From an uncultured Chloroflexota bacterium (lineage in GTDB: Bacteria; Chloroflexota; Limnocylindria; Limnocylindrales; CSP1-4), in contig CAIYZX010000150.1 of the NCBI GenBank assembly GCA_903930745.1, positions 1 through 37,514 on the forward strand: a DNA stretch of 37,514 bases, written 5' to 3'. Positions 3,409 to 37,514 of the stretch are shown one piece after another. Position 1 is the stretch's first letter. Each line of letters opens with the position of its first letter. The notes beneath the pieces are model-generated. The model had not been told where the DNA came from. It ran no database searches and saw nothing but the letters and a program-made list of their open reading frames with translations. Position numbers and translations under genes: made by a program.

Positions 3409-4757
3409 CGGGCCACCCCGGCACCGCCGGCCGGCTCAAGCAGCCCGATGGCCTCCATCGCGCCCACCACCGTCCCAACGTCGCCGGTCTCGCCCGCGTC
3501 CTGGCGGAGGAGCTCGTCGATGTCCGGCTTGAGCCGGATGGAGCGGTCGATGGCAACGGACGAGCCGGGTGCGTACGCTCCGACCTCGATCAGGTCCTTG
3601 GCGCCCTCGTACTCGGCGAGGGCCGCGCGCAGGGAGCCCGCGAGGCGGCGGTGGTGGTCCGTGGTGATGGACGGCATGACGCGCGACACCGATGCCAGCA
3701 CGTCGATCGCCGGGTAGTGGTTGCGCTCCGCGAGGGAGCGGGTCAGGACGATGTGCCCGTCGAGGATGGACCGGACGGTGTCCGCCACCGGCTCGTTGAA
3801 GTCGTCGCCTTCCACGAGGACCGTGAAGAAGCCCGTGATGGTCCCCTCGTCGCCCGAGCCCGCACGCTCGAGCAGGCGCGGCAGGTACGAGAAGACGCTC
3901 GGCGGGTAGCCGCGCAGGGCCGGGGGCTCGCCCGCGGCGAGGCCGATCTCGCGCTGGGCCATGGCCAGCCGGGTCACGGAGTCCATGAGGAGCGTGACGT
4001 CCTCGCCGTCGTCGCGGAAGGCCTCGGCGATGGCCATGGCCACCTCGGCCGCCTTGAGGCGCAGGAGGGCCGGCTGGTCGGACGTGGCGACGACCACCAC
4101 GGAGCGCGCGAGGCCCTCGGGGCCCAGCTGCTCGTCGATGAACTCCTGGACCTCGCGGCCACGCTCGCCGATGAGCGCGATCACGTTGGCGTCCGTGGAG
4201 CTGTGGCGGGCGATCATGCCCAGCAGCGTGGACTTGCCCACGCCGGAACCCGCGAAGATGCCCATGCGCTGGCCCATGCCGGTGGTCAGCAGGCCGTCGA
4301 TGGCGCGCACGCCGGTTGACATGGTGCGCGTGATGCGCGCCCGGGCCAGCGGATCCGGCGTGGAGGCGGCCATGACGCGCACGTCCGCGTGGAGCGGGCC
4401 CTTGTCGTCGATCGGGCGGCCGAAGCCGTCCAGCACGCGGCCCAGGACACCGCGGCCCACCGGCACGCGGAACTGCTGCTCGCGGAGGCGGACCGGGGAG
4501 CCCGGCTGCACGCCCGCGATGTCACCGAACGGCACCAGCGTGATGCGCTGGTCGCGGAAGCCCACCACCTCGGCGCTGACCGGGATGTCGCCCTCGAGGT
4601 CCACCCAGCAGATGGAGCCCAGGCGGACGGTGAGCCCGGCGGCCTCGATGGTGTTGCCCACGACACGCGTGACGGAGCCCGTCGCGTGCACGGTGGTCGC
4701 GGACGACACCGCGCGGCGCAGGTGGCCCAGGAGCGGAGGGTGCGGCCGGCCGTTCAT
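3405..4757 (-). CDS. fliI: flagellum-specific ATPase FliI
   Basis: 450 aa. Walker A GSGVGKSTLLGMIAR, Walker B-like VTLLMDSVTRLAMAQREIGLAAGEPP, and F1/T3SS-ATPase family signatures throughout. Confidence 0.95.
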   Translation of the reverse strand: MNGRPHPPLLGHLRRAVSSATTVHATGSVTRVVGNTIEAAGLTVRLGSICWVDLEGDIPVSAEVVGFRDQRITLVPFGDIAGVQPGSPVRLREQQFRVPVGRGVLGRVLDGFGRPIDDKGPLHADVRVMAASTPDPLARARITRTMSTGVRAIDGLLTTGMGQRMGIFAGSGVGKSTLLGMIARHSSTDANVIALIGERGREVQEFIDEQLGPEGLARSVVVVATSDQPALLRLKAAEVAMAIAEAFRDDGEDVTLLMDSVTRLAMAQREIGLAAGEPPALRGYPPSVFSYLPRLLERAGSGDEGTITGFFTVLVEGDDFNEPVADTVRSILDGHIVLTRSLAERNHYPAIDVLASVSRVMPSITTDHHRRLAGSLRAALAEYEGAKDLIEVGAYAPGSSVAIDRSIRLKPDIDELLRQDAGETGDVGTVVGAMEAIGLLEPAGGAGVAR

Positions 4758-24698: not shown

Positions 24699-26138
24699 AT
24701 GGCCCCGGACGAGGCGCCGCGTCTGCCGTCCAACCGCCCGATCAAGCTGGAGCCGGGACAGGATCCGCCCGCGCCCGGCTCCACGGCGCTGGAGCGGCTC
24801 GCGGCCAAGTACGGCACCGGCGGCCAGGGCGGCCTGCCCGGCGTGTCGTCCGTGTACGGCAAGCCCGGCACGCCGGGCACCTCCGGCGCCACGCCCGCGA
24901 AGCCGGCCACGCCCACACCCGGTGCGCGCCCCGCTCCCCGGCCGGCCCCACGGCCCTCCGCCGCCACGCCCGTCCACCAGCCGACCGGTGGCCGCCCGCT
25001 GCACGTGCCCGGTGACACGGTGGCGGAGCGCGTGGCGTACCGGCTCGCACTCAAGCGCGGGCAGATCGAGCCGGGCGCGCCCGGGAGCTCCGTTCCGCCC
25101 CGGCCCGCGGCGGCAACCTCGTCCGCCGCCCCCGCGAGCGCCCCCAGGACCGCGCCTGCCGCCCCGAGAGCGCCGCTGGCGTCGTCGTCGGCCACCGGCG
25201 CCACCTCCGGCTCCGTGACGTCTTCCCGGCCCGCATTCGCGCTGGAGCGCCCGCGCCTCGACACGCGCCGCCCGGCCCCGGCCGACGGCGCCCCGGCACC
25301 CGCCCCGAAGCGCCCCGTTGCGCCGCTCAACCCGCCCACGCCCGCGGAGATCGAGGCGTCCGTGGACCACGAGATGTACGAGGCCTACGCCGGACTGGTG
25401 AAGAGTCTCCTGGGCTTCGACCTCACCCAGTACAAGCGGCCCCAGGTCTGGCGCCGCTCCATGTCGTTCGCGAAGCAGAAGGGCTGCCGCGACGTCATCG
25501 AGCTGATGGAGCGCTGCCGGACGGACCTGGACCTGCGCACCGCGGTGCGCGACATGATCACGATCAACGTCAGCGAGTTCTTCCGCAACCCGGACGCGTG
25601 GGAGTCCCTGCGCACCGCCGTGCTGCCGGAGCTCCTGCGCATGGGCCGGCCAATCAGGTTCTGGAGCGCCGGCTGCTCGCTGGGCTATGAGCCGTACACC
25701 TTCGCCATGATGGTCAAGGAGGCCGGGGGCGGCGATGCCAAGATCCTGGCCACGGACCTCGACGAGACGATCCTCGCCCAGGCGCGAGCCTCGGTCTACG
25801 CGGACCACCAGATGGTGGGCGTCTCACCCGCCCGGCGCGCGAAGTTCTTTGACGAGCGGGACGCCACCTGGTCCGTGAAGCCGGAGCTGCGCTCGATGAT
25901 CCAGTGGCGGCGCCAGGACCTGCTCCGGGACCCGTTCCCGTCAGACCTTGACCTGATCGCCTGTCGCAACGTCGTGATCTACTTCACGGACGACGCGAAG
26001 GACGGGCTGTACCGCCGGTTCACGCAGGCGCTGCGCGTCGGCGGGACGCTCTTCATCGGCGCCACGGAGGCCATCGGCAGCGCCCGGTCCTTCGGGCTCC
26101 AGATGGTCACGTCCGGCCTCTACCGCCGCGTGGAGTAG
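24699..26138 (+). CDS. cheR: chemotaxis methyltransferase CheR with ~215-aa Pro/Ala-rich N-terminal extension
   Basis: CheR core from aa ~215: INVSEFFRNPDAWE, RFWSAGCSLGYEPY (SAM-binding), ACRNVVIYF. Third positions in the extension, read codon by codon from 24699, are almost all G/C, which supports translation from 24699. That start lies 2 nt after the cheA stop. Confidence 0.85.
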   Translation: MAPDEAPRLPSNRPIKLEPGQDPPAPGSTALERLAAKYGTGGQGGLPGVSSVYGKPGTPGTSGATPAKPATPTPGARPAPRPAPRPSAATPVHQPTGGRPLHVPGDTVAERVAYRLALKRGQIEPGAPGSSVPPRPAAATSSAAPASAPRTAPAAPRAPLASSSATGATSGSVTSSRPAFALERPRLDTRRPAPADGAPAPAPKRPVAPLNPPTPAEIEASVDHEMYEAYAGLVKSLLGFDLTQYKRPQVWRRSMSFAKQKGCRDVIELMERCRTDLDLRTAVRDMITINVSEFFRNPDAWESLRTAVLPELLRMGRPIRFWSAGCSLGYEPYTFAMMVKEAGGGDAKILATDLDETILAQARASVYADHQMVGVSPARRAKFFDERDATWSVKPELRSMIQWRRQDLLRDPFPSDLDLIACRNVVIYFTDDAKDGLYRRFTQALRVGGTLFIGATEAIGSARSFGLQMVTSGLYRRVE

Positions 26139-26277: not shown

Positions 26278-28044
26278 TCAGCCGCCGCTGCTGTTGTTGA
26301 TGCTCGTGATGGACTTCTGCGTGGACTGGAGCTGGCTGAGGGTCTGCTCCATGCGGGAGAACCTCGCCTCCAGCGCTGCCGTCTTGGCGTCGATGCGCTC
26401 CTGGAGGGCCGTCTGGCGCGAGGAGAGAAGGCTCAGCTGCGAGGTGATGGAGTCCGCGGACGTGGAGAGCCTGCCGCCCGTCTTGGTCCAGTTGTTCACG
26501 GCCGTGGTGAGGGGCGCCAGCAGGCCGGACGTGCCATTGAGGATGTCCGCCACGGAGGTCGGATCCTGCTCGATGGCGGCGGCGAGCTTGGTCGCGTTGA
26601 GCGACAGGCGGCTGGTGCTGCCCACCGCGGAACCCACGGCACCGGAGGTCACGCCAAGGTCTGCGAGCGAGCGGAACGTGCCCGTCCCGGTGGAGGCCGT
26701 CAGCGTGCGCCGCAGGTTGAGGGTCAGGCTGCGCGCCTCCAGGTCGCCGGCGAGCGCGCCCTTCGTCCCGTTCGCCGGATTGGCAGTGAGGGCGTCCAGC
26801 TTGTCCGCCAGGCTGTTGTAGGCGTTGACCAGCTCCTGCACCGCGGACGTGACGCCGCTGGTGTCCGGCGTCACCGTGATGGTGGAGGTCCCCTGGGCGA
26901 GTGCCGTGATCGTCACGCCGGTCAGCGCGCCGGTGACCTTGTTGCTGTCCGAGTAGTAGGACTGCCCGTCGATCGTGACCTTGGCCTGCTGGCCCACGGC
27001 CTGGGCGTTGGTGGTGCCGGGCGCGAGGTTGAGCGCGGCGGCCAGGGGCCCGGTGTCCGTGATGGACATGTACGCGGCCCCACCGGTCCTGGCCGTCAGC
27101 ACCAGCTTGTCGTTGGTGCGATCCAGGCTTGCCGTGACGCCGGCGGAGGACGCGTTGATCTTCGTGACGATGGACGAGAGCGTGTCCGTGGACGTGTTGT
27201 ACGAGATGGCGGCGCCATTGACGGTGAGCGTGCCGGTGCTGGCCGCCGTGAACGTGGCGGAGAGGCCCGCGCTGTCCAGCGCGGACGAGGTGCTGGTGAC
27301 ACCGAGGGCGCTCCGCCCGGTCATGGGCGTGCTGTTGGTGATCGTGGTGGTGCCGGTGCCGGCCAGACCCAGCACCGCGAGCGCGTTGCTCGTGTCACCG
27401 GAGGCACCGAAGCTGACGGCGTGGGATGCGCCACTGACGGCCACCTGGAGGCGGTTGCCGCTGATGGAGACCGTTGCCGTCGAGGTGGACCCTCCGCCCT
27501 CGTTCGCCTGGATCTGCGTGGTGAGCGCATTGGAGATGGCGGTCAGCGCGGCACCGAGCGTGGTGCTCGACGGCGTGCCGATCGTCGCCGTGACCACCTT
27601 GCCGTCCACCACCATGGAGACCTGGCCGCCGGTCACCGTGCCCGGCAGGGAGAGGCTGGAGAGGGTCTTGGTGAGATCGTCCGAGGTGATCGCCTTGCCC
27701 ATGGCCGCCGTGGAGGTGGCCCGGGTGCTGGTGGCGAGCTGGTCCACGGTGACGGAGTAGCTGCCGGCCAGCGCGGACGTGCCGGCGGATGCCGCGAGCA
27801 CCGTGCTGCTGGAGGACGAGGCGGAACGCTTGGAGCCGCTCAGGTCCTTGGAGAACGCCGTGGCTGCGGTCTCGAGGCGGGACAGGTAGATGCGCAGGTC
27901 CGTGTATGCGCCCTGCGTGCCCAGCAGCGTCTTGCGCTGGGTCTGCAATCGCGTGAGCGGGGCCTGCTCCGCGGAGACGAGCGCAGACAGGAGCTGCTGT
28001 GTGTCCAGCCCCGAGATTGCACCGCTGACGCTGAAAGTGGCCAT
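26278..28044 (-). CDS. fliD: flagellar filament cap protein FliD (HAP2)
   Basis: 588 aa. N-terminal ISGLDTQQLLSALVSAEQAPLTRLQTQR and C-terminal LEARFSRMEQTLSQLQS are FliD N/C family motifs. Ser/Thr/Ala-rich middle. Confidence 0.93.
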   Translation of the reverse strand: MATFSVSGAISGLDTQQLLSALVSAEQAPLTRLQTQRKTLLGTQGAYTDLRIYLSRLETAATAFSKDLSGSKRSASSSSSTVLAASAGTSALAGSYSVTVDQLATSTRATSTAAMGKAITSDDLTKTLSSLSLPGTVTGGQVSMVVDGKVVTATIGTPSSTTLGAALTAISNALTTQIQANEGGGSTSTATVSISGNRLQVAVSGASHAVSFGASGDTSNALAVLGLAGTGTTTITNSTPMTGRSALGVTSTSSALDSAGLSATFTAASTGTLTVNGAAISYNTSTDTLSSIVTKINASSAGVTASLDRTNDKLVLTARTGGAAYMSITDTGPLAAALNLAPGTTNAQAVGQQAKVTIDGQSYYSDSNKVTGALTGVTITALAQGTSTITVTPDTSGVTSAVQELVNAYNSLADKLDALTANPANGTKGALAGDLEARSLTLNLRRTLTASTGTGTFRSLADLGVTSGAVGSAVGSTSRLSLNATKLAAAIEQDPTSVADILNGTSGLLAPLTTAVNNWTKTGGRLSTSADSITSQLSLLSSRQTALQERIDAKTAALEARFSRMEQTLSQLQSTQKSITSINNSSGG

Positions 28045-28132: not shown

Positions 28133-28441
28133 TCAGCCGGAGACGTCCAGGATGTGGGGCCCACGTCCGGGGGTGTCGTACGCCGCGAGGGCCCGGGCTG
28201 ACTCGCGTGCGGCCGGCAGCTGTGCCGAGACGGCCTCGGCGAGACCGGGGTCGCGAGCCAGGAGCTCCGCCAGGCGATCCGCCACCGCGTTGGGCAGCTG
28301 GCTCGTGGTGGCCGGGGCGGCGGCCTCCGCCCTGGGGGCGGGCTCGGCGTCCGTGGTCCGGTCCGGGGCGTTCGCAGCCCTCCGGGTGGTGCGGGGGCCA
28401 GCCGGATGCGCCGCCTGCGGGACCAGGGACGAGATCCTCAC
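28133..28441 (-). CDS. hypothetical 102-aa protein between fliS and fliD
   Basis: GTG 28441 overlaps the fliS stop (GTGA). G/C-rich third positions when read codon by codon. No recognisable family motif (…TSQLPNAVADRLAELLARDPGLAEAVSAQLPAARESARALAAYD…). Confidence 0.6.
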   Translation of the reverse strand: MRISSLVPQAAHPAGPRTTRRAANAPDRTTDAEPAPRAEAAAPATTSQLPNAVADRLAELLARDPGLAEAVSAQLPAARESARALAAYDTPGRGPHILDVSG

Positions 28442-28914
28442 GCCCGGATGGCCCCCACGAGGCTTCCGATGCCCGTGGCGGTCACGGGGACGGCCATCAC
28501 GGGGCGGGGGGGCGGCCCGGGAACGGCGGGCCGCGCCTGCGGCACCTCGTTGGTCTCGATCGCCCGCCAGGCCTCAAGGAGGCCGCGGAGGAGATCGATC
28601 ACCTCGAGCACCGGCCCGGGCTGCTTGCCCACGTTGCCGGCGACGAGACGGCGGAGCATGAAGTCGTAGAGGGCGTCCAGCTGGACGGCGATGTCGCCGC
28701 CCCTGTCCATGTCCAAGGTCTCGCGGAGGGCCGCGACGATGGCCTGGGCACGAATGCTGGCCGTGTGGGCCCCCTCCAGGTCGCGAGCGGCGAGCCGCTG
28801 GATGGACTGGGCGCAGAACCGGATGGCGCCCTCGTACAGCAGGACGACCTGGTGGGCCGGGCTGCTGGTCGTCACCTGCGCTGTGCGGTAGGCGGCGGTG
28901 GGGTCGTACGTCAC
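28438..28914 (-). CDS. fliS: flagellin-specific export chaperone FliS
   Basis: 158 aa with a GTG start. AYRTAQVTTSSPAHQVVLLYEGAIRF...DIAVQLDALYDFMLRRL matches the FliS four-helix family. Pro-rich C-terminal tail. Confidence 0.9.
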   Translation of the reverse strand: MTYDPTAAYRTAQVTTSSPAHQVVLLYEGAIRFCAQSIQRLAARDLEGAHTASIRAQAIVAALRETLDMDRGGDIAVQLDALYDFMLRRLVAGNVGKQPGPVLEVIDLLRGLLEAWRAIETNEVPQARPAVPGPPPRPVMAVPVTATGIGSLVGAIRA

Positions 28915-29008: not shown

Positions 29009-29788
29009 CTAGCGGAGGAGGCTCAGGACCGACTGCGGGGCCTGGTTGGCCTGCGCGAGGATCGCCACACCCGCCTGCTGGAGGATCTGGCTCTTCGTGA
29101 AGGTCACCATCTCCGAGGCGACGTCGAGGTCGCGGATGCGGGACTCGGACGCCGCCAGGTTCTCAGCCGCGACCGAGAGGCTGGCAACGGTGTACTCAAG
29201 GCGGTTCTGCGCCGCGCCGAAGGTGCCGCGCAGGGTGCTGATGGCCGTGACCGCGGTGTCGACCGACGCGATGTCGGTGACATAGGCAGCCGATGTGTTG
29301 ACCGCGCCGAACGTGACGGAGAGGGTCTGGCCCTGGTCCGCACCGACCTGGAAGGAGACGCTCGAGGAACCGGTCAGCAGCGTGACACCGTTGAACTTGG
29401 TGTTGCTGGCGATGCTGCTGATGGCGCTCTGGAGCTGCGTCACCTCGGCCGAGATGGAGGCGCGGGTGTCCGTGCTGTTGGTGCCGTTCGCGTACTGGAC
29501 GGCCAGCTCACGGATGCGCTGGAGCATGTTGTGGACCTCGGTCAGAGCGCCTTCAGCGGTCTGGACCATCGAGATCCCGTCCTGCGCGTTGCGGGTGGCC
29601 TGGTTGAGGCCGCGGACCTGGGAGCGGAGCTTCTCGGAGATCGCGAGGCCGGCGGCGTCGTCGGCGGCGCGGTTGATGCGGAGGCCCGAGGAGAGCTTCT
29701 CGACGGACTTGCCGTACGACACGGCGGTGGCGCCGAGGTTGCGCTGCGCGTTCAGGGCCTCGATGTTGGTGTTGATCCGGATGCCCAC
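29009..29788 (-). CDS. fliC: flagellin (short, 259 aa)
   Basis: GTG start with GGAGG 8 nt upstream. [40 protein letters not shown] and C-terminal [25 protein letters not shown]. Short Ser/Thr-rich central region. Confidence 0.96.
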
Positions 29789-29862: not shown

Positions 29863-29890
29863 GTATCGGTCCGGGACCCCAAGGTCTTGA
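29863..29890 (-). promoter_or_regulatory. candidate sigma-28-type promoter of fliC: TCAAG-N15-ACCGATAC
   Basis: On the minus strand, TCAA (29890-29887), 16 nt, then aCCGATAc (CCGATA = 29869-29864). Compare consensus TAAA-N15-GCCGATAA. About 75 nt upstream of the fliC GTG. Confidence 0.5.
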
Positions 29891-29947: not shown

Positions 29948-32125
29948 TCACCGACGGCCCGGACGACCCTTCCTGGGCTTCTGGTGGCCCGGCCTGCCAT
30001 GCCGCCGAGCGGCGCCGGGCAGGCCCGGTGCGGACGGGGCGTGCCCATCGGACGGCGTGGCCCCGGGTGCGCGCAGCTGGTCCACCAGGGGCGCGGCATC
30101 GGCATCGTCGAGGGCGGCCCAGCTCACCGGATGCTCGATGCCTGCAACGCGCGCGCCCGCATCGAGGAGACCCGCCCAGAACGCCCAGCCCGGAGCCTGG
30201 GCCTCACGCCATGACTCCGGATCGATCGGCACCACGCCGGCCAGGCTCCGGTGGAACAGCTCTGTCCCGAAGGTCAGGACGCCGTCCGGGTTGGGCGGCC
30301 AGGCGCCAAGGGCGACCCTCGCCTGCGACCCGGCATGGATGATCGCCTGCCCGTAGACGAGCTCCAGGCCGTGCTCGGTGGCGACCTCCAGCAGGGTGGC
30401 CACGTGGTCGGGCTCGAAGGCCACCTCGGGCGAGAGGGGTGCGATCCACGCACCCGTGGCCGCCGTGATCCCGGCCGCGACCAGGCTGGCCGTGGCGGCC
30501 CAGCGGTCCGCCGTCTCGTCTCCGCGGGCGGCTGGGAGCGTGGCCGGGACGACCCGGACACCGGGGGCGCGGGCGATGGCCTCGAAGGCGGCCAGCCGGC
30601 CGGGCTCCGCGACCAGCAGGACCTCCAGCGGCCGGTACGTGCCTGCCAGGGCGGATTCCACGGCCCGTCGGACCAGCGCATCCGGGTCGTCCCACACCGG
30701 GACGATGACGGTGACGAGCGGCGCCTGGGCGTCCTGGGGAGGCCAGCAGGTGGCACCGCCGCCGCGCAGGCCGGCGAGCACGTCCGCGGCCCGCGCCGCC
30801 ACCGTGCGTGCCGCGCGGCGGTGGGCGAGCGACGCGGCAGCCTCCGCGTGGACGGCACCCGCATCCGGCAGGCCACCGAGCCCGTGCACGCGACCGTCGA
30901 CCGCGCGGCCGGCATGCTCCGCCGCCCATCGGTAGGCGTCCGCCCATTCCGGGGCGCGCGCCGCCACGGAGTACTCGGCCAGGACCCGCTCGCGCGCTCG
31001 TCCGGCGATCTCCTCGCGCAGGTCACGCGAGGCCACCAGGCGCTCAAGCGCGGTGTGCCAGTCCTGCGTCGTCTCCGCGAGCAGACCGTCCACGCCGTCG
31101 CGGATCGCGTCGAACGGACCGCCGTCCGGCATGCGGGTGGCAACGGTGGCGGCGCCGGCCATGGAGTACTCCAGCCAGTGGAGCTCGGACTTCGCCTGGT
31201 CGAAGACGTCGCCCACGAGGGGGGCGAGACCGATGTGGGGCCGGGCGGTCGCGAGGCTGCGGGCGAAGGCCGAGGCCCCCTCGACGAACGGTCCCACCTC
31301 GTCCATGATCGCGATCACCGGCTCCGCCGGCCCACCGGCAGGGGCGTTCAGCGCGCCCAGCCACACCCTGCGTGAACCCGGGTGCCGGGCGGCGACCGCG
31401 TCCACGGCCGGCCGGCAGACGTCGTAGTCGCGCATACGGTTGGGCTTGGCGTAGTAGAGCATCCGTGGATCGCCCTCCACGGGCGGCGCCCCGGGCTCCA
31501 CCGTGTACCAGGCGGGCTGGACGGCATTGCGGACCACCCGGATGGCGTCGTTGTAGCCCCTGAACCGGCTCGCGAGGACGGGGGTCGTCACCGTCACGAG
31601 GTCCGCCCGGCGGAGCATCCGCTCCACCACCTCCACCTCGGCGGCAAGGCGGAGAGAGACTCCGTTCCACGCCTGGACGCGCAGCAGATCGTCGTCCGTC
31701 TCATAGACCATGGCCCGGCCGCGCAGCAGCTCCGGGTACTCCTCCAGGGCCTTGAAGAGTGGCCGGACGAGGCGTTCCGGCTGGTTGACCCGGTGGCCCG
31801 TGCCGCGTGCATGCCGGTCAAGGTCCGCCTGGTGCTCGCTGACCAGCGCGCAGTCACGGCACGACCAGCGCGTCACGTAGAAGCGCCGGAAGACCAGGAC
31901 GTCCGCCCAGTCCAGGTCCGAGCGATCCAGCACCGTGTCCGCCCCGGAGATCGCCTCCTCGGCGGACGCGTCCGGACCCGCGGTGGTGCCCAGGCGGTAG
32001 TTGGTCCACGCTCGCAGCTCCACGCCGTGGGCGGCAAGGGCCTCACGGTGCATCCCAAACCGGTAGATGTCGCAGGGGCCGTCGTCCATGGACCCGAAGA
32101 CGAGGACGCGCAGGGTGTCGGTCAT
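29948..32125 (-). CDS. two-domain glycosyltransferase (N-terminal GT-B/GT4-like + C-terminal GT-A/GT2-like) with Cys2His2 insert; candidate flagellin glycosyltransferase
   Basis: 725 aa. GT-B C-lobe pattern SELHWLEYSMAGAATVATRMPDGGPFDAIRDGVDGLLAE...LREEIAGRARERV. GT2-like LVTVIVPVWDDPDALVRRAVESAL...LEVLLV. Basic C-terminal tail. The stop lies 160 nt upstream of the fliC start, same strand. Confidence 0.75.
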   Translation of the reverse strand: MTDTLRVLVFGSMDDGPCDIYRFGMHREALAAHGVELRAWTNYRLGTTAGPDASAEEAISGADTVLDRSDLDWADVLVFRRFYVTRWSCRDCALVSEHQADLDRHARGTGHRVNQPERLVRPLFKALEEYPELLRGRAMVYETDDDLLRVQAWNGVSLRLAAEVEVVERMLRRADLVTVTTPVLASRFRGYNDAIRVVRNAVQPAWYTVEPGAPPVEGDPRMLYYAKPNRMRDYDVCRPAVDAVAARHPGSRRVWLGALNAPAGGPAEPVIAIMDEVGPFVEGASAFARSLATARPHIGLAPLVGDVFDQAKSELHWLEYSMAGAATVATRMPDGGPFDAIRDGVDGLLAETTQDWHTALERLVASRDLREEIAGRARERVLAEYSVAARAPEWADAYRWAAEHAGRAVDGRVHGLGGLPDAGAVHAEAAASLAHRRAARTVAARAADVLAGLRGGGATCWPPQDAQAPLVTVIVPVWDDPDALVRRAVESALAGTYRPLEVLLVAEPGRLAAFEAIARAPGVRVVPATLPAARGDETADRWAATASLVAAGITAATGAWIAPLSPEVAFEPDHVATLLEVATEHGLELVYGQAIIHAGSQARVALGAWPPNPDGVLTFGTELFHRSLAGVVPIDPESWREAQAPGWAFWAGLLDAGARVAGIEHPVSWAALDDADAAPLVDQLRAPGATPSDGHAPSAPGLPGAARRHGRPGHQKPRKGRPGRR

Positions 32126-32129
32126 GGCG

Positions 32130-33515
32130 TCAGGATGGCACCGGTGCCGGGTCCGCCGCGCCGGCGTTCAGCAGGGCGACGTGGCGGAGCACCGGGTGGA
32201 TGACGTACCAGGTCCGCGCAGGCCCGTCCTGGGGCCGGCCCACGATCGCGCGCCCGCCGGCCTCCGCGACCAGCACGTCGCGCAGGAGCGCGGCGCGCAT
32301 CCACGGGTCGAAGGCGTGGTCAAGGGCGACCGGGTCCGCGGGCGGATCGAACTCGCGCTCTGCGACGACCTGGCCCGTGTCGATCCCGGCGTCCAGGAGG
32401 AGCGCCGTGGCCGTGAGCCGGCCCTCCTCCAGCAGCTGGTAGTACATGGGCGTGCTGCCCCGGTGGCCAGGGAGACGGCCCGGGTGCACGTGCAGGTAGC
32501 GCAGACCCTCGACCCGGAAGAAGGACGGGGCGAGGAGAATGCCCGCGGGCGGCGCGATCACGACCGTCGCGGGCGCGACGGCGGCGAGCGCCGCCACCAC
32601 CTCGGGGGCGTCCAGGCGAGGCACGTCCAGCGCGGTCGCCGGGATCCGCCGCCCGCGCAGCGCGTCCGCGAGGGGCGTGATGTTGTCGAAGAGCGGGGTG
32701 GGCACGCGGCCGGCCCCAGGCAGTGCCGCCCCCTCCAGGGCGACGAGGACAACCGAGTCCGGGGCGCAGCCGGCGGCGGACAGCAGGTCCAGGTACGCGC
32801 GGGCGCGCGCCGTGTCCGCGGCCAGCATCACCACCCGGCGGCGTTCGGCGGCTGCGGAGCCGGCGGACGCGGGCGGCGCAGCCCAGGTGGGGCCCACTGG
32901 CGGCCCGGACGGAACGGGCAACGGCCTCGACGCCAGCTGCGCCACCATGCGAAGCTCCGCCTCCAGCGCATCCGCCGCGACGCCGGCGACCTGCCCTCGA
33001 AGCGACCCGGGCGCCGCCGTGGCGAGGTGGGTGACGATGTCCCCGGCCTTGAGCAGCGTGGACAGGAGACCCGCATCGGGCGCATCCGCTCCGAGCGCCG
33101 CCTCCCGGGCCAGGAAGGCTGCCAGCCAGGCGTACGCCTGTGGGGAGGCCTCGTCGTCCGAGGCAGGGCGCAGCTCGGCCGTGTAGGCCGCGCGGAGACG
33201 GCGGGCGACCTCCAGCTTGCGCACCAGGACGTCGCGCCAGGCCTCGGCCGTCGCCCGGGTGACGGTCCCCTCCGCCAGGGCGCGCACGACGGTGCCGGTC
33301 GCCACCGGTCCTTGGCCCGGCGCCGGGAGCGTCGCGGGAGCCCCACCCGGCTCCGTGAGCGCCGGCGCCTCCGCGTCCTCGGCGGCCAGCAGGCGCTCGA
33401 TGGCGCGCGTCCGCGCCGCGCGGTACGCCTCCAGGAAGGCTCGTCCGCCGAACGGCGTGTAGAAGTACCGGCCCTGCACCGGCCGCGGATCCTCCTCCGC
33501 GTAGACGTACCTCAC
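32130..33515 (-). CDS. hypothetical protein with C-terminal formyltransferase-fold domain (Fmt/PurN N-domain-like)
   Basis: 461 aa; GTG start overlaps the upstream stop (GTGA). aa ~226-440: VVIAPPAGILL...YLHVHPGRLPGHRGSTPMYYQLLEEG...ALLLDAGIDTGQVV resembles the formyl_trans_N core (xNxHPSLLPxxRG...DxGxDTG), but with His in place of the catalytic Asn. The N-terminal 220 aa is unassigned. Confidence 0.65.
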   Translation of the reverse strand: MRYVYAEEDPRPVQGRYFYTPFGGRAFLEAYRAARTRAIERLLAAEDAEAPALTEPGGAPATLPAPGQGPVATGTVVRALAEGTVTRATAEAWRDVLVRKLEVARRLRAAYTAELRPASDDEASPQAYAWLAAFLAREAALGADAPDAGLLSTLLKAGDIVTHLATAAPGSLRGQVAGVAADALEAELRMVAQLASRPLPVPSGPPVGPTWAAPPASAGSAAAERRRVVMLAADTARARAYLDLLSAAGCAPDSVVLVALEGAALPGAGRVPTPLFDNITPLADALRGRRIPATALDVPRLDAPEVVAALAAVAPATVVIAPPAGILLAPSFFRVEGLRYLHVHPGRLPGHRGSTPMYYQLLEEGRLTATALLLDAGIDTGQVVAEREFDPPADPVALDHAFDPWMRAALLRDVLVAEAGGRAIVGRPQDGPARTWYVIHPVLRHVALLNAGAADPAPVPS

Positions 33516-34051
33516 GGCGACGGCTCTCGTGGGGTCTGCGCGGACCGGGGGGCCATCAACGCCACCACCCGGTCCACCTGTCGTTCGAGCGCCTCCACGG
33601 CGTGGTCCGCGCCCAGCACGAGATCGGGCGCCGCGGGCCGTGGGAACGGGATGTCAACGCCCACCACGTCCTGGATGCGGCCCGCCCGAGCCCCGGAGTA
33701 CAGCCCCTTCTGGTCGCGTGCCTCCAGGACCTCCCAGGGCACGTCCAGGAAGACCTCCGCGTAACGTCCGAACTCCCTGCGGTTCTGGGCGAGACGCTCG
33801 GGATCGATCGCCAGGACGCAGGCCACGACCTCCACCCCCTGGTCCTCCAGCAGCCGGCAGAGTCCGGCGATCCGGCTGCCGTTCCGCATCCGGTCCGCCA
33901 GGCCGTGCCCAAGATCGTTGCCGAAGACCGTCCGCACGGCGTCGCCGTCCAGCAGCACCACGGTCCTCCCGTCGCGGCGCAGACGATCCACCACCGCGCG
34001 TCCCAGGGTGCTCTTGCCCGATCCCGCCAGGCCCACGATCCAGGTGATCAC
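33512..34051 (-). CDS. P-loop kinase of the adenylylsulfate (APS) kinase family; Cj1415-like candidate
   Basis: GTG 34051 overlaps the upstream stop (GTGA); the rest of track ORF 33512..34939 is out-of-phase read-through. IVGLAGSGKSTLGRAV, VVLLDGDAVR, GNDLGHGLADRMRNGSRIAGLCRLL, LDVPWEVLEARDQKGLY. 179 aa. Confidence 0.8.
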   Translation of the reverse strand: MITWIVGLAGSGKSTLGRAVVDRLRRDGRTVVLLDGDAVRTVFGNDLGHGLADRMRNGSRIAGLCRLLEDQGVEVVACVLAIDPERLAQNRREFGRYAEVFLDVPWEVLEARDQKGLYSGARAGRIQDVVGVDIPFPRPAAPDLVLGADHAVEALERQVDRVVALMAPRSAQTPREPSP

Positions 34052-34845
34052 GCACCGGCCTCCGGTTCCGCCCCACGGGCGGCGGACGGGCGCTCCGCCC
34101 AGCGCTCCTCGGCGACCGGGATGTCCTCCGGCCGGTCGATCTCCACCCAGCCCGCGCGGAACGTGACGGCATGCACCATCCCGCGACCAGCCAGCACGTC
34201 GAGGACGTCCGTCATGTAGAGCGCACGCAGGCTCGGCCGCCGGCCGAGCACCGTTCGACCCGCCGCCGCGTCGTCCCTGGCCTCGGCGAAGACGTCGCGC
34301 AGGGCCTGGACCCCGGCCCCCTCGAATGCCACGAGGCCGATGTACTGGCCCTGGACCTCGTCCATGGATGCCGGGCGACCGCCCAGCGTCTCGATCCGCC
34401 CGTCCGGGAGCAGCCGCATCGTCTCCGTGTCCGCCAGCGGATCCTCCGAGCGGGCCTCCCAGTAGGGGCGCCACGCGAGGTCCACGGCGCACCGGACGGG
34501 TCCGGCGCCGTCCAGCACGGCCCGCAGGATGGACGGGTCGTACGCGATGTCCCCGTAGCTCATCACGAAGCCGGCACCGAACTCCTCGGCCGCGCAGAAG
34601 AGGGTCTGGACCATGTTGGTGGAGGCATAGGCCGGGTTCTCCAGCAGCCGCACATCGAACCCCGCGAGGTGGGCGATGCCGTGGCCGCCCACCACCACGA
34701 CGTCGCGGATCCCGCAGCTCGCGGCCGCCTCCAGCGTCCAGGCGAGGAGTGGCCGCCCGGCAAGCGGGACGAGGGCCTTGGGGCGATCGGCGGTGAGCGC
34801 GCCAAGGCGTGTCCCCTGCCCCGCCGCAAGCACGACCAGGCGCAT
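34048..34845 (-). CDS. sugar/phospho-head-group nucleotidyltransferase (LicC/GlmU-type NTP transferase); Cj1416-like candidate
   Basis: ATG 34845 lies inside track ORF 34048..35400, 2 nt after the upstream stop. MRLVVLAAGQGTRLGALTADRPKALVPLAGRPLLAW, ENPAYASTNMVQTL, SYGDIAY. 265 aa. Confidence 0.82.
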   Translation of the reverse strand: MRLVVLAAGQGTRLGALTADRPKALVPLAGRPLLAWTLEAAASCGIRDVVVVGGHGIAHLAGFDVRLLENPAYASTNMVQTLFCAAEEFGAGFVMSYGDIAYDPSILRAVLDGAGPVRCAVDLAWRPYWEARSEDPLADTETMRLLPDGRIETLGGRPASMDEVQGQYIGLVAFEGAGVQALRDVFAEARDDAAAGRTVLGRRPSLRALYMTDVLDVLAGRGMVHAVTFRAGWVEIDRPEDIPVAEERWAERPSAARGAEPEAGA

Positions 34846-34847
34846 GG

Positions 34848-37514
34848 TCAGGGGACCGCCGGCGCCGGGCGGACACGCCCGTTGCCGCAGTCGAGGTCCA
34901 CGGCCGGAGCGCCCGCGAGCGTCTCGTAGATCGCGGCACCGCAGCCGATGGCGGCCGGCAGGTTGAACTCCGCGGCGCGGATCGCCATGTGGGAGCCCAT
35001 GCCGCCGTATTCCGTGACCAGCCCGGCGATGCGGTGGCTGAAGATCCAGTCGTACCCGGGGTCGGCTGCGCGGATCAGCACGATCGCGCCGTCGAGATCC
35101 GGACGGCCGACGGCCTCGTCCAGGGCCACAGCCGGCGCCACGACGCGGGCGGACGTGACGAAGTTCGGCCTGCCGCGTCCCTGCCGGAACGCAAGGACCT
35201 CGTCCGGGCCGCGGATCAGGTCCGGCAGGCGGATCGCCGACGTGAGGGCCGCCTGCTTGCGCTGCTGGCCCGCCGTCCGCCGGAGCCTGGCCGTGGTCGC
35301 ACCGGTCAGGCTGTCCGTCGCGAAGAGCAGGATCTCGTCGACGTGGAGGAACGAGAGGTCGTCGCGCGTCAGGCCGATGGCGTCGCCAAAGCCCGCACAC
35401 GTCTCCAGGACCAGGTCAAGGTCCTTCATGAACTCGAACTTGGCCTGCTCGCGCGCGGCGATGGCGGCCCGGATGAACGCCAGGAGCCCGGCGGCATCGC
35501 CCGGCAGCCCGGCCTCCGCGAGGAGCCCGCCGATCGCCTCCGCCGCTCCTGCGAAGACACCGGCGGCCATAGCGGCCGTGGCCGCCGGCTCGGGCGCCTC
35601 GCCAACGCGCGCACCCGCGGAGCCGAGGACCCGGTCAAGCGACGCCGCGTAGTTGGGTGCCGTGATCTCGTACGAGTTGGAGCGCAGGTGGCCGAAGCGC
35701 CCGACGAACCGCGCGGTGGACTCCGGGGTTCCGTCCACGGCGGCGATCGCAGAGGCCGTCTCCGCCGCCACCGTGGGGATGGAGCGCAGGACCAGGGCGG
35801 CGTCCGCCTCCGAGATGGCACCCCTGGCAACGAGCGAGCGGAGCAGCGCCATGGCGATGAAGGCCTGCCGGGCGAGGACCGCGAACGGCTCCACCCCGTG
35901 GTGGAGGCATCGCTCAAGGTGATCGCGCAGGGCACGACCCATCGCCGGGGCCCCTGCGGGCGGCAGCGCGAGCGCCGTGGCCCGGCGGGCGGCCAGCCGG
36001 TCAAGGGCGCCGAGCTCCGCGACGACAGACCCGTCCCCGCCTGCCAGGACGCGCGCGGTGATCTCACGCAGGCCGTCCAGGAACCGGCGGATGGCGTCCT
36101 CGTCCAGCCCGGCAGCGCGCATCCGTGCTGCATGATCCGGCCAGTCGAAGGCGAGGCACGTGGGCGTGATCTCGAACTCGATCTTGTCGTGGAGGTGCGG
36201 GTTGGCCGCGATCCGGTCCAGGCAGGCGTCGATCCACGCCGCGGCCGTGCCCTCGTCCAGCGACGAGGGCAGGAACGACGCAAGCGAGGCGCGGACGTCC
36301 ACGTACGGGCGGCCGGCCACCGACAGGATCAGGGGCTCCGGCTCCAGGTCCCGGTAGCCCATCCGGGCACGGGCATGGGCCCAGGCCCGGTCGCCCACCA
36401 GCCGCTGATAGAGGGAGAGGGCCAGCGGACGCGGCGCGGCGCCGATCATCTCGGCGGGGTTCCAGTCCGGCATGTTGCCAAGGAGCGAGCGGCGGCCGGG
36501 CACGCCGGCGCGCGGGCCGGTGCGCTCCGCGACGAACTCGCGCGCGCAGCCGACCAGCAGCAGCAGGTCCTCGTCGGCGACGGACCGCTCCTTCGCGGGC
36601 TGTGCGGCCACCAGCGGGCGGACCTGGAAGAGATAGATGGTCCCATCGGCCGCCAGGCCGAACTCGATGTCCAGCGCGTCGAGGTAGGCCAGCGAGATGA
36701 GCTCGCGGCCCAGGTCCAGCAGCCGGTCCACGTCCGGGTCGCCCTGCGTGCCCGCGACGGACCACGAGGCGTAGACGGTCTCCAGCTCCCCGTCCGCGCC
36801 GGACGTGACCACGTCGGACCTCCCGGACGTGCGGTCCATCGTCAGCACGAAGTACGGGGCGCCGGTTGCGAGGTCGCGGGTGAACAGCACGCCGTTGCCC
36901 GCGAGGTCCGCAACGTGCGGCTGGACCAGGATCTCGTCGAGGGGGTTGGGGTCCCGCCCGTCGATGGCATAGCTGGCCACCACCCGCCCGACGGCGGCGG
37001 CGAAGGCGCCGGCCTGCGAGAGCGGGACGTCCAGCACGGAGTCGAAGTAGCCGGCCGCGGACGTGGTGGCCGCGTCCTCGGATACCGTGCTGCTGCGGAC
37101 AACCACGGACGGCACCGTGGGAAAGGCCGCCCGGACGGCCGCCTCCACCGCCGCCGGGTCTGCCGCCCAGTCCGCGACCGTGCACCGGACCTGGTCCAGG
37201 ACCACGGCCCGCCGCGTGAGGGCGGCGATGCCGGCCAGCGTGCGGGCCTTGCCCCGGAAGATGGTGCCCACGAGGGCGGCCTGGTCGCCCACGGGCGCGG
37301 CGAGGTTGGTGAGGTCGATGCGCGCGATGTCGCCCAGGGATGCCACCAGGGCGTCGAGACCGGCGGACGGATCCGCCGCCACGAGCGAGCCTGCCACCGC
37401 AAGGACGGCGTCGAGCCGGTCCGCGGGGATGACGAGGCTTCCCGCGAAGACCGCGCCGCCGCCGTCCGGGAAGCGGACGCCCGCCCGGATCCCGGTGCCC
37501 GCCAGGAGCCGCTC
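34848..37514 (-). CDS. PEP-synthase/PPDK-type ATP-grasp kinase with swivelling phosphohistidine domain and no PEP/pyruvate TIM-barrel; Cj1418-like candidate (5' end possibly outside window)
   Basis: The track gives GTG 37397 (849 aa), but the frame stays open to 37514 (…ERLLAGTGIRAGVRFPDGGGAVFAGSLVIPADRLDAVLAVAGSL…). PPDK_N signatures FRGKARTLAGI, VVVRSSTVSEDAATTSAAGYFDSVLDV, NMPDWNPAEMIG. C-terminal mobile domain VLIRAADPGYDWIFSHRIAGLVTEYGGMGSHMAIRAAEFNLPAAIGCG. Confidence 0.85.
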   Translation of the reverse strand, partial: ERLLAGTGIRAGVRFPDGGGAVFAGSLVIPADRLDAVLAVAGSLVAADPSAGLDALVASLGDIARIDLTNLAAPVGDQAALVGTIFRGKARTLAGIAALTRRAVVLDQVRCTVADWAADPAAVEAAVRAAFPTVPSVVVRSSTVSEDAATTSAAGYFDSVLDVPLSQAGAFAAAVGRVVASYAIDGRDPNPLDEILVQPHVADLAGNGVLFTRDLATGAPYFVLTMDRTSGRSDVVTSGADGELETVYASWSVAGTQGDPDVDRLLDLGRELISLAYLDALDIEFGLAADGTIYLFQVRPLVAAQPAKERSVADEDLLLLVGCAREFVAERTGPRAGVPGRRSLLGNMPDWNPAEMIGAAPRPLALSLYQRLVGDRAWAHARARMGYRDLEPEPLILSVAGRPYVDVRASLASFLPSSLDEGTAAAWIDACLDRIAANPHLHDKIEFEITPTCLAFDWPDHAARMRAAGLDEDAIRRFLDGLREITARVLAGGDGSVVAELGALDRLAARRATALALPPAGAPAMGRALRDHLERCLHHGVEPFAVLARQAFIAMALLRSLVARGAISEADAALVLRSIPTVAAETASAIAAVDGTPESTARFVGRFGHLRSNSYEITAPNYAASLDRVLGSAGARVGEAPEPAATAAMAAGVFAGAAEAIGGLLAEAGLPGDAAGLLAFIRAAIAAREQAKFEFMKDLDLVLETCAGFGDAIGLTRDDLSFLHVDEILLFATDSLTGATTARLRRTAGQQRKQAALTSAIRLPDLIRGPDEVLAFRQGRGRPNFVTSARVVAPAVALDEAVGRPDLDGAIVLIRAADPGYDWIFSHRIAGLVTEYGGMGSHMAIRAAEFNLPAAIGCGAAIYETLAGAPAVDLDCGNGRVRPAPAVP

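Follow-up and report, generated by a model that had tools for sequence, protein, structure and literature searches.

A putative Cj1418/Cj1416/Cj1415-type gene module in a flagellin glycosylation island of an uncultured Chloroflexota bacterium, with apparent loss of the Cj1417-type hydrolase gene

The DNA analyzed here is a stretch of 37,514 nucleotides from an uncultured Chloroflexota bacterium (contig CAIYZX010000150.1), called the window when its full length is meant. At one end it carries three tightly packed genes that resemble those making the phosphoramidate donor for the capsule of Campylobacter jejuni and that lie upstream of a flagellin gene; all genes around this cassette are on the minus strand. 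The first encodes a glutamine-kinase-like, phosphoenolpyruvate (PEP)-utilizing kinase (34848..37514), whose frame is open to the window end with no stop up to 37514; the window holds residues 135-1022 of its 1022 aa. It is followed by a 265-aa LicC/COG1213-like nucleotidyltransferase in the position of Cj1416 (34048..34845), with its ATG 2 nt after the kinase TGA, and by a 179-aa P-loop kinase of the adenosine 5'-phosphosulfate (APS) kinase fold and Cj1415 type (33512..34051), whose GTG start overlaps the transferase TGA as GTGA. The G+C content of the window is 70-77%, and the third-position G+C of the large kinase gene (0.93) and of a 461-aa open reading frame (ORF) downstream of the cassette (0.88) is as for real genes in DNA of 72-75% G+C; the other two ORF calls are based on Pfam E-values. 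An earlier, sequence-only reading of the window had described these three coupled genes, with the same spacings, the same lengths for the two smaller proteins and a large kinase devoid of a TIM barrel, and all of this was confirmed from the sequence and by Pfam.

The remaining 134 residues of the large kinase were seen on identical contigs, namely several metagenome contigs of 72-78 kb with an identical nucleotidyltransferase and the same gene order that extend past the window end. From N- to C-terminus, the full-length protein has a degenerate nucleotidyltransferase-like domain, then ATP-grasp and central domains, and finally a swivelling histidine domain. Pfam detected PPDK_N (1.9e-9) and the C-terminal PEP-utilizers swivel domain (4.2e-14), and gave no match to the PEP/pyruvate TIM barrel (PEP-utilizers_C). 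The motif GGMGSHMAIRAAEF is encoded at 34965-35006, and His976 (codon 34989-34991), within GGMGSHM, is invariant in 13 homologues. The first ~200 residues are nucleotidyltransferase-like, with a degenerate GxGTR signature (GRRRL) and a degenerate catalytic lysine (QPP for RPK). This N-terminal domain (window 37000-37514 and L092:10001-10650, L092 being the sequence that covers 10 kb upstream of the window) is found in long-form kinases (~1000 aa) and is absent from short-form ones (~780 aa). About 1600 kinase homologues were found, with lengths of ~1000 aa for most of the best 120. The kinase matched NCBIfam NF004508 with 713.7 bits (cutoff 501) over model positions 8-786 of 789; this equivalog model corresponds to PRK05849 and is titled 'hypothetical protein'. 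Several homologues with 45-68% identity bear the JGI label 'glutamine kinase'.

The nucleotidyltransferase matched Pfam NTP_transf_3 (5.5e-19) and also NTP_transferase, had LicC (1jyk, 2e-10) as best PDB match, and keeps the GxGxR...K signature (G9, G11, R13, K23). No curated equivalog model and no Cj1416-specific model matched it; we presume that it is a phospho-X cytidylyltransferase. The small kinase matched Pfam APS_kinase (1.2e-33) and has a P-loop and a DGD motif. It scored 150 bits against NF004041 (PRK05541; cutoff 127) and 123 against TIGR00455 (apsK; cutoff 138.7), and homologues with 48-59% identity carry the JGI label 'cytidine diphosphoramidate kinase'. Its presumed role is that of a 3'-kinase acting on a cytidine diphosphate (CDP)-X compound.

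Considered by fold, the three enzymes could also take part in sulfate activation, rifampicin phosphorylation, PEP synthesis or LicC-type phosphocholine activation. Their generic Pfam matches (APS_kinase, PPDK_N/PEP-utilizers, NTP_transferase) would allow this, as would their nearest solved relatives, which are Listeria rifampicin phosphotransferase entries for the histidine domain of the large kinase and LicC for the transferase. We regard such functions as extremely improbable. The large kinase shares with rifampicin phosphotransferase and PEP synthase/PPDK the ATP-grasp and swivelling phosphohistidine domains and a three-step phosphotransfer logic, but it lacks their TIM barrel and missed the models of rifampicin phosphotransferase and PEP synthase by >700 bits: 36.6 bits against a cutoff of 999 for NF041857 (RIF_Ptrans_rph), where only the histidine domain aligns, and 38.4 against 739.75 for TIGR01418 (PEP_synth). 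Altogether, models for rifampicin phosphotransferase, PEP synthase, PPDK and prodigiosin ligases gave 36-50 bits, with cutoffs from 456 to 1350. The small kinase is similar to CysC in its APS_kinase fold, P-loop and DGD motif, and presumably makes a donor akin to 3'-phosphoadenosine 5'-phosphosulfate (PAPS) by acting on a nucleotide 3'-OH. Unlike CysC, it falls under the apsK cutoff and co-occurs with the glutamine-kinase family, and it has no ATP sulfurylase nearby; ATP sulfurylase and PAPS reductase were absent among the genes called or scanned in the ~47 kb inspected (the window plus 10 kb upstream). Across phyla, moreover, all three families occur together with a Cj1417-like hydrolase. Sulfate activation and rifampicin phosphotransferase had been kept as alternatives on first reading; these two and PEP synthase all missed their curated thresholds widely.

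In C. jejuni, CDP-phosphoramidate 3'-phosphate is made from glutamine, ATP and CTP by four enzymes, namely the glutamine kinase Cj1418, the phosphoglutamine cytidylyltransferase Cj1416, the gamma-glutamyl-CDP-amidate hydrolase Cj1417 and the cytidine diphosphoramidate 3'-kinase Cj1415 (PMC11800397). Judged by profiles and neighborhood, the window appears to have the same protein families for three of the four steps of this O-methyl phosphoramidate (MeOPN) pathway, in the same gene order, and its large kinase resembles Cj1418 in combining ATP-grasp, central and C-terminal swivelling histidine domains with no TIM barrel, although it has the extra degenerate N-terminal domain. Scanning one genome per species gave 80 loci spread over many phyla, which together with the window locus make a non-redundant set of 81; none of the 80 is from Campylobacter, and PDB sequence searches matched no Cj protein. 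Presence and absence were determined by tblastn and ORF clustering on contigs that are in some cases truncated, and the labels of metagenome-assembled genomes (MAGs), such as 'Anaerolineaceae' for L005, may be unreliable. A homologue of the nucleotidyltransferase is present beside the kinase in 70 of the 81 kinase loci and the small kinase in 54, and a class I amidotransferase of ~210 aa is found near the kinase in 72, almost always between kinase and transferase. This last neighbor lends indirect support to glutamine as the substrate of the kinase family. Unbiased clustering of all ORFs returned the same core gene set. All 64 scanned amidotransferases matched NF045546 (gamma-glutamyl-CDP-amidate hydrolase), better and more often than any other family, with a best E-value of 5e-38 and every reported score under the strict equivalog cutoff. 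Relatives of the window locus carry the fourth gene, often with a methyltransferase, in the Campylobacter order 1418-1417-1416-1415. In Magnetovibrio blakemorei (L012) the kinase gene is followed by those for the amidotransferase, transferase, methyltransferase and small kinase, and then by separate genes for the two halves of the 461-aa protein.

Taken together, the curated profiles (NF004508, PRK05541), the JGI product names and the co-occurrence in a conserved neighborhood support placing the three window genes in the Cj1418, Cj1416 and Cj1415 families. The sequence-only reading had made this assignment and had noted a Campylobacter-like order minus Cj1417, which matches what we find. The cassette family is widespread across phyla, mostly in nonulosonic-acid/aminosugar (surface-glycan) loci. 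Frequent neighbors are NeuB (25 of the 81 loci: L007, L008, L014 and 22 more), CMP-nonulosonate cytidylyltransferases (~20 loci), DegT aminotransferases, epimerases and methyltransferases, and sugars of the pseudaminic or legionaminic type may be common acceptors of this modification.

The window cassette is found in a flagellin glycosylation island and not in a capsule locus. The island spans ~18 kb between FliW/CsrA and flagellin/FliS/FliD. It encodes, in order, FliW, CsrA, a GT2 glycosyltransferase, a 509-aa protein of no family, FdtA, a methyltransferase, a DegT aminotransferase, a hexapeptide acetyltransferase, a protein with tetratricopeptide repeats (TPR) and a GT61 domain, and a TagF-like protein; then come the large kinase, the nucleotidyltransferase, the 3'-kinase, a formyltransferase-fold protein, a glycosyltransferase (GT) fusion, flagellin, FliS and FliD. 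Genes upstream of the large kinase share its orientation. Locus L085, whose kinase is 69% identical, has the same island flanked by two flagellin genes, and this conserved placement supports the link to the flagellin locus drawn on first reading. The TagF-like protein scored 24.5 bits against Pfam Glyphos_transf (gathering score 22.1). A profile built from six of its homologues had the TagF-like polymerase Cps3D (1e-4) and TagF (5e-4) as its sole PDB matches with E<0.01, and the GYPRxD and KVHP motifs are invariant in the TagF-like proteins. The TPR-GT61 protein, of 612 aa, has an N-terminal TPR region and a C-terminal Glyco_transf_61 domain.

It had been noted at the outset that the window has no Cj1417-type gene, and this was borne out. 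The gap between kinase and transferase is 2 nt, tblastn with the hydrolases of L012 and L005 found no match at E<=1e-3 in the window or in L001, and a profile of 64 hydrolases gave none at E<=1 when all six frames of the window and of the 10 kb upstream were searched. Fusion of the hydrolase to another protein was ruled out, since protein lengths equal those of hydrolase-bearing relatives, and one tblastn match (g41) was an artefact from an over-extended ORF containing the kinase C-terminus. The closest loci differ in this gene. An intact 209-aa hydrolase is present in L085 and a hydrolase also in L090 (68% kinase identity), while L088 (82%) and L087 (74%) lack it like the window. In L089 (67%), a 51-aa ORF between kinase and transferase (3500-3655) joins hydrolase residues 1-43 in frame to residues 200-209 and has thereby lost the catalytic Cys and His/Glu; by its sequence, this remnant is gene loss caught in progress. 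The Planctomycetota locus L047 is also without a hydrolase gene.

In a neighbor-joining tree of 84 kinases, built without bootstrap values, all loci with the TagF-like gene form one clade, and most of them also have the TPR-GT61 gene, except the shortest contigs. Within this clade, the group (L087,(window,L088)) has the pair (L085,L090) as its sister, and L089 pairs with L005, which bears a hydrolase. This topology and the position of L089 imply that the hydrolase was lost at least twice independently, and the comparison identifies its absence from the window as a derived, lineage-specific deletion from a hydrolase-bearing ancestor. CDP-amidate 3'-phosphate, the canonical product, can therefore not be taken for granted in this lineage.

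With an essential step of the canonical pathway missing, and an inactivating deletion in progress in L089, the module could be a decaying remnant, its pathway non-functional and its genes on the way to becoming pseudogenes. This is very unlikely. The reading frames are all intact and coupled in translation, the same proteins recur on 6-15 independent metagenome contigs, and three hydrolase-less lineages (74-83% kinase identity) keep all genes and their conserved residues, with dN/dS of 0.16-0.37. Compared with L088 and L087, respectively, dN/dS was 0.16 and 0.24 for the large kinase, 0.25 and 0.37 for the transferase, and 0.23 and 0.23 for the small kinase, values that are approximate given dS of ~0.75 and a strong third-position G+C bias, and that indicate continued purifying selection on the remaining cassette genes. 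The hydrolase-less proteins also keep all family-conserved columns (90 in the kinase, as defined from 71 hydrolase-linked kinases, 31 in the transferase and 21 in the small kinase), save for changes common to hydrolase-bearing sisters. A substrate shift in the hydrolase-less lineages was thus not apparent as deviation at family-conserved columns, which is a crude test in which substrate-binding residues are not defined.

We infer, with a probability of roughly 0.55, that the window encodes a Cj1418/Cj1416/Cj1415-type module making a CDP-activated phospho-donor for a flagellin glycan. In this scheme, the PEP-synthase-like kinase would autophosphorylate on His976 and phosphorylate a small N or O nucleophile, most likely the L-glutamine amide. 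The nucleotidyltransferase would turn the phospho-product into a CDP-linked form (CDP-glutamine), and the APS-kinase-fold enzyme would phosphorylate the nucleotide 3'-OH. The acceptor would probably be a 3-acetamido-3,6-dideoxyhexose made by the FdtA, DegT and hexapeptide gene products and attached to flagellin by the TPR-GT protein, and the TagF-like phosphotransferase would most likely move the phosphate-linked substituent to the flagellin sugar. In TagF chemistry, an alcohol attacks the beta-phosphorus of a CDP-X donor. TagF-like FtaD of Clostridioides difficile moves phospho-N-methylthreonine from CDP-N-methylthreonine to flagellin N-acetylglucosamine (bioRxiv 10.64898/2026.02.12.704994). 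Because of this chemistry and this precedent, the TagF-like protein is the best transferase candidate, and a better one than the formyltransferase-fold protein and the GT fusion that had been proposed as users of the donor.

Several points weigh against this interpretation. The assignment of the three proteins is based on curated profiles, JGI product names and conserved neighborhood and not on alignment to Cj1415-Cj1418; NF004508, an unnamed model, presumably represents Cj1418. The long-form (1000-aa) kinase family is known from sequence, not biochemistry. Flagellin is the presumed carrier of the modified glycan by guilt by association, and its gene has a sigma-28-like promoter of its own. 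The formyltransferase-fold protein, which accompanies the cassette in ~30 loci, has no role in the scheme. Regarding the chemistry, the retained 3'-kinase fits awkwardly with a TagF-like transferase, since the donors known for TagF-type enzymes (CDP-glycerol, CDP-ribitol and CDP-N-methylthreonine) carry no 3'-phosphate. CDP-glutamine is only an intermediate in C. jejuni, and the hydrolase may be encoded elsewhere in a genome of which ~47 kb was inspected.

Within the scheme of a CDP-activated donor for flagellin, we favor a specific version because the hydrolase, which normally turns CDP-glutamine into CDP-amidate, was deleted in this lineage: the donor would be (3'-phospho-)CDP-L-glutamine, and the group transferred would be phosphoglutamine and not bare phosphoramidate. 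CDP-L-glutamine or its 3'-phosphate would then be the end-product, from which the TagF-like enzyme would put N-phosphoryl-glutamine, an N-acyl phosphoramidate, on a flagellin sugar; its free alpha-amino group might then receive a methyl or formyl group from the island methyltransferase or the formyltransferase-fold protein. We put this forward tentatively. The repeated loss of the hydrolase specifically in the TagF clade fits the hypothesis of a transferase that takes CDP-glutamine directly.

Conversely, the canonical chemistry could have been kept. 3'-Phospho-CDP-amidate would still be made, with the glutamyl group removed by an enzyme encoded elsewhere or by an unrecognized island protein (candidates being a further peptidase C26/class I amidotransferase, the 509-aa protein and the N-domain of the 461-aa protein), and the flagellin glycan would carry a phosphoramidate, possibly O-methylated by the 406-aa methyltransferase of the island. 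In favor of this, a methyltransferase is encoded here but not in L085, the hydrolase-bearing sister island; the kinase, transferase and 3'-kinase are unchanged at family-conserved positions, as they would be with unchanged substrates; the 3'-kinase, whose known substrate is CDP-amidate, is kept under purifying selection; and only ~47 kb of the genome was inspected. Retention of the 3'-kinase and of the conserved residues, however, fits the phosphoglutamine and the canonical readings equally. Against the canonical chemistry, each of at least two hydrolase losses, one complete and one by internal in-frame deletion, would need a replacement acting in trans, and 72 of the 81 loci have retained the gene in cis, immediately behind that for the kinase. 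Moreover, the profile search found no amidotransferase-like sequence in the island or window at E<=1. We consider retention of the canonical product the main rival, possible but doubtful.

The kinase and transferase of this flagellar clade could also act on another small substrate (a hydroxy acid, an amino alcohol or another amino acid), giving a phosphodiester decoration with no P-N bond as in the C. difficile Type A and Pseudomonas aeruginosa b-type flagellin glycans. A TagF-like enzyme, a cytidylyltransferase and a methyltransferase beside flagellin follow the logic of FtaB, FtaC and FtaD, and loss of the hydrolase would be costless if glutamine were not used. According to a report cited in PMC12275187, Cj1416 is promiscuous with Mn2+ and also takes phosphoglycerate. 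Even so, we find such a substrate unlikely: the hydrolase-less kinases keep all 90 columns conserved in the 71 hydrolase-linked kinases, in L085 and L090, their nearest sisters, the same TagF-containing island includes an intact Cj1417-like gene, so that the ancestral substrate of the clade should have been glutamine-like, and the window island has no FtaA-like gene.

The flagellar systems just mentioned, C. difficile Type A (FtaABCD) and P. aeruginosa b-type (PA1088-PA1091), use a CDP-(N-methyl)threonine donor and a TagF-like phosphotransferase (bioRxiv 10.64898/2026.02.12.704994; PMC11833859). The window island is like them in having a cytidylyltransferase, a TagF-like enzyme and a class I methyltransferase encoded beside flagellin, a likeness drawn from their description and not from alignment to FtaB, FtaC or FtaD. 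It differs in that the enzyme making the phospho-substrate is of glutamine-kinase type and not FtaA type, and in having an APS-kinase-fold 3'-kinase, which the Fta system lacks; furthermore, with glutamine as substrate one would expect a P-N linkage (an N-acyl phosphoramidate) in place of a P-O diester. In Caulobacter, FlmG is a TPR-glycosyltransferase that glycosylates flagellins (PMC7591256). The 612-aa island protein is similar to FlmG in its TPR and GT architecture, size and proximity to flagellin. Unlike FlmG, its GT domain is Glyco_transf_61, and the donor is probably a dTDP-3-acetamido-3,6-dideoxyhexose, because of the FdtA, DegT and hexapeptide genes in the island, and not pseudaminic acid.

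Compared with the C. jejuni MeOPN system, the window module thus stands apart by the deletion of the Cj1417-type gene, by its flagellar location together with a TagF-like candidate transferase and a formyltransferase-fold partner, and by an uncultured host of 72-75% G+C. To our knowledge, phosphoramidate (P-N) decorations are very rare, and their donor pathway has been characterized enzymatically only for the C. jejuni capsule. MeOPN biosynthesis genes have been surveyed within Campylobacter (PMC3907429). An MeOPN-like cluster has also been noted in print on archaeal Borg elements. The sequence-only reading had held both the context and the target to be undescribed for this chemistry. Full-text literature searches retrieved no report tying it to flagellin glycans. 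That reading needs correction, however, in that the cassette family is widespread and an MeOPN-like cluster outside Campylobacter is already in print. Identification of the pathway is in itself ordinary. The points of interest are the recruitment of an enzyme set widespread across phyla into a flagellin glycosylation island, the recurrent hydrolase loss and the TagF link. The loss of the hydrolase step at least twice, with the rest under selection, is a natural experiment that makes transferase acceptance directly testable. The locus also suggests a TagF-like enzyme as the possible transferase for a phosphoramidate or phospho-amino acid, which connects the module to the recently solved CDP-threonine pathway of C. 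difficile and P. aeruginosa flagellins. Should phosphoglutamine prove to be the product, it would be a new glycan substituent from a second class of CDP-amino-acid donor, the first natural P-N donor of this kind for a transferase, and the pathway a hybrid of Campylobacter MeOPN and Clostridioides Type A logic.

The island methyltransferase has 406 aa, with its class I methyltransferase domain at the C-terminus, and is encoded between FdtA and DegT (L092:3842-5062), ~5 kb past the window end. It is absent at that position in the hydrolase-bearing L085, and its gain thus coincides with the loss of the hydrolase. The first reading had reported no methyltransferase, which is true of the cassette region but not of the window, which holds the chemotaxis methyltransferase CheR (24699-26138), nor of the island. 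It had also pointed to the sequence beyond 37514 as a place to look for a methyltransferase and a hydrolase; the former was found, and no amidotransferase-like hydrolase was present in the 10 kb upstream. The FliW and CsrA genes at the upstream boundary of the island (L092:1-240; L085:864-1460) are preceded in L085 by its second flagellin gene, and the pair may be useful for taxonomic placement of the host.

Downstream of the cassette, on the minus strand, lie the genes for the 461-aa protein (32130..33515) and the 725-aa GT fusion (29948..32125). The former has a helical N-domain and a formyltransferase-fold C-domain. Its AlphaFold2 (AF2) model (pLDDT 76) retrieved Fmt, ArnA and WbkC with Foldseek (best E 6e-8), and the Pfam match to Formyl_trans_N was weak. 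The motifs HVHPGRLPxYRGS and DTG are present, with HxH where canonical formyltransferases have NxH, and with DTG kept. Conceivable roles for the protein are those of the phosphoramidate transferase or of an N-formyltransferase for the glutamine or amidate nitrogen. A homology search found only 12 relatives, and the protein or its C-domain is present in 29-30 of the 81 loci, across phyla and usually directly after the small kinase; M. blakemorei encodes it in two pieces, of 220 and 235 aa (L012:15662-17028). The GT fusion joins a GT-B-like and a GT-A-like glycosyltransferase (Pfam Glyco_trans_1_2, Glycos_transf_2 and Glyco_tranf_2_3). Its island position is taken in L085 by a 684-aa glycosyltransferase with Glyco_trans_1_2, and L005 has a homologue by tblastn. 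The presence of both proteins, with flagellin downstream, is as first described (Pfam, AF2 model and Foldseek).

The 259-aa flagellin (29009..29788, minus strand; Flagellin_N 4.4e-46, Flagellin_C 7.6e-27) starts with GTG after an AGGAGG ribosome-binding site. In the 159-nt gap upstream of it, TCAAG-N16-CCGATA (29864..29890, minus strand), read by eye, resembles the sigma-28 (FliA) promoter consensus, and flagellin is probably transcribed apart from the cassette. A flagellin gene ~6 kb from a short-form kinase in a Defluviitaleaceae (Firmicutes) MAG (L034:4031-4471) may be a second, independent association of cassette and flagellin. Further along the minus strand are FliS (28438-28914; precomputed Pfam on identical contigs) and FliD (26278-28044; FliD_N and FliD_C), and the remainder of the window carries further flagellar and chemotaxis genes (FliI, FliH, FliG, FliF, CheB, a hybrid kinase, CheA and CheR). 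Between FliS and FliD, on the same strand, a 102-aa ORF with no Pfam family on record (28133-28441) is conserved in position, with a 73-aa ORF in L085.

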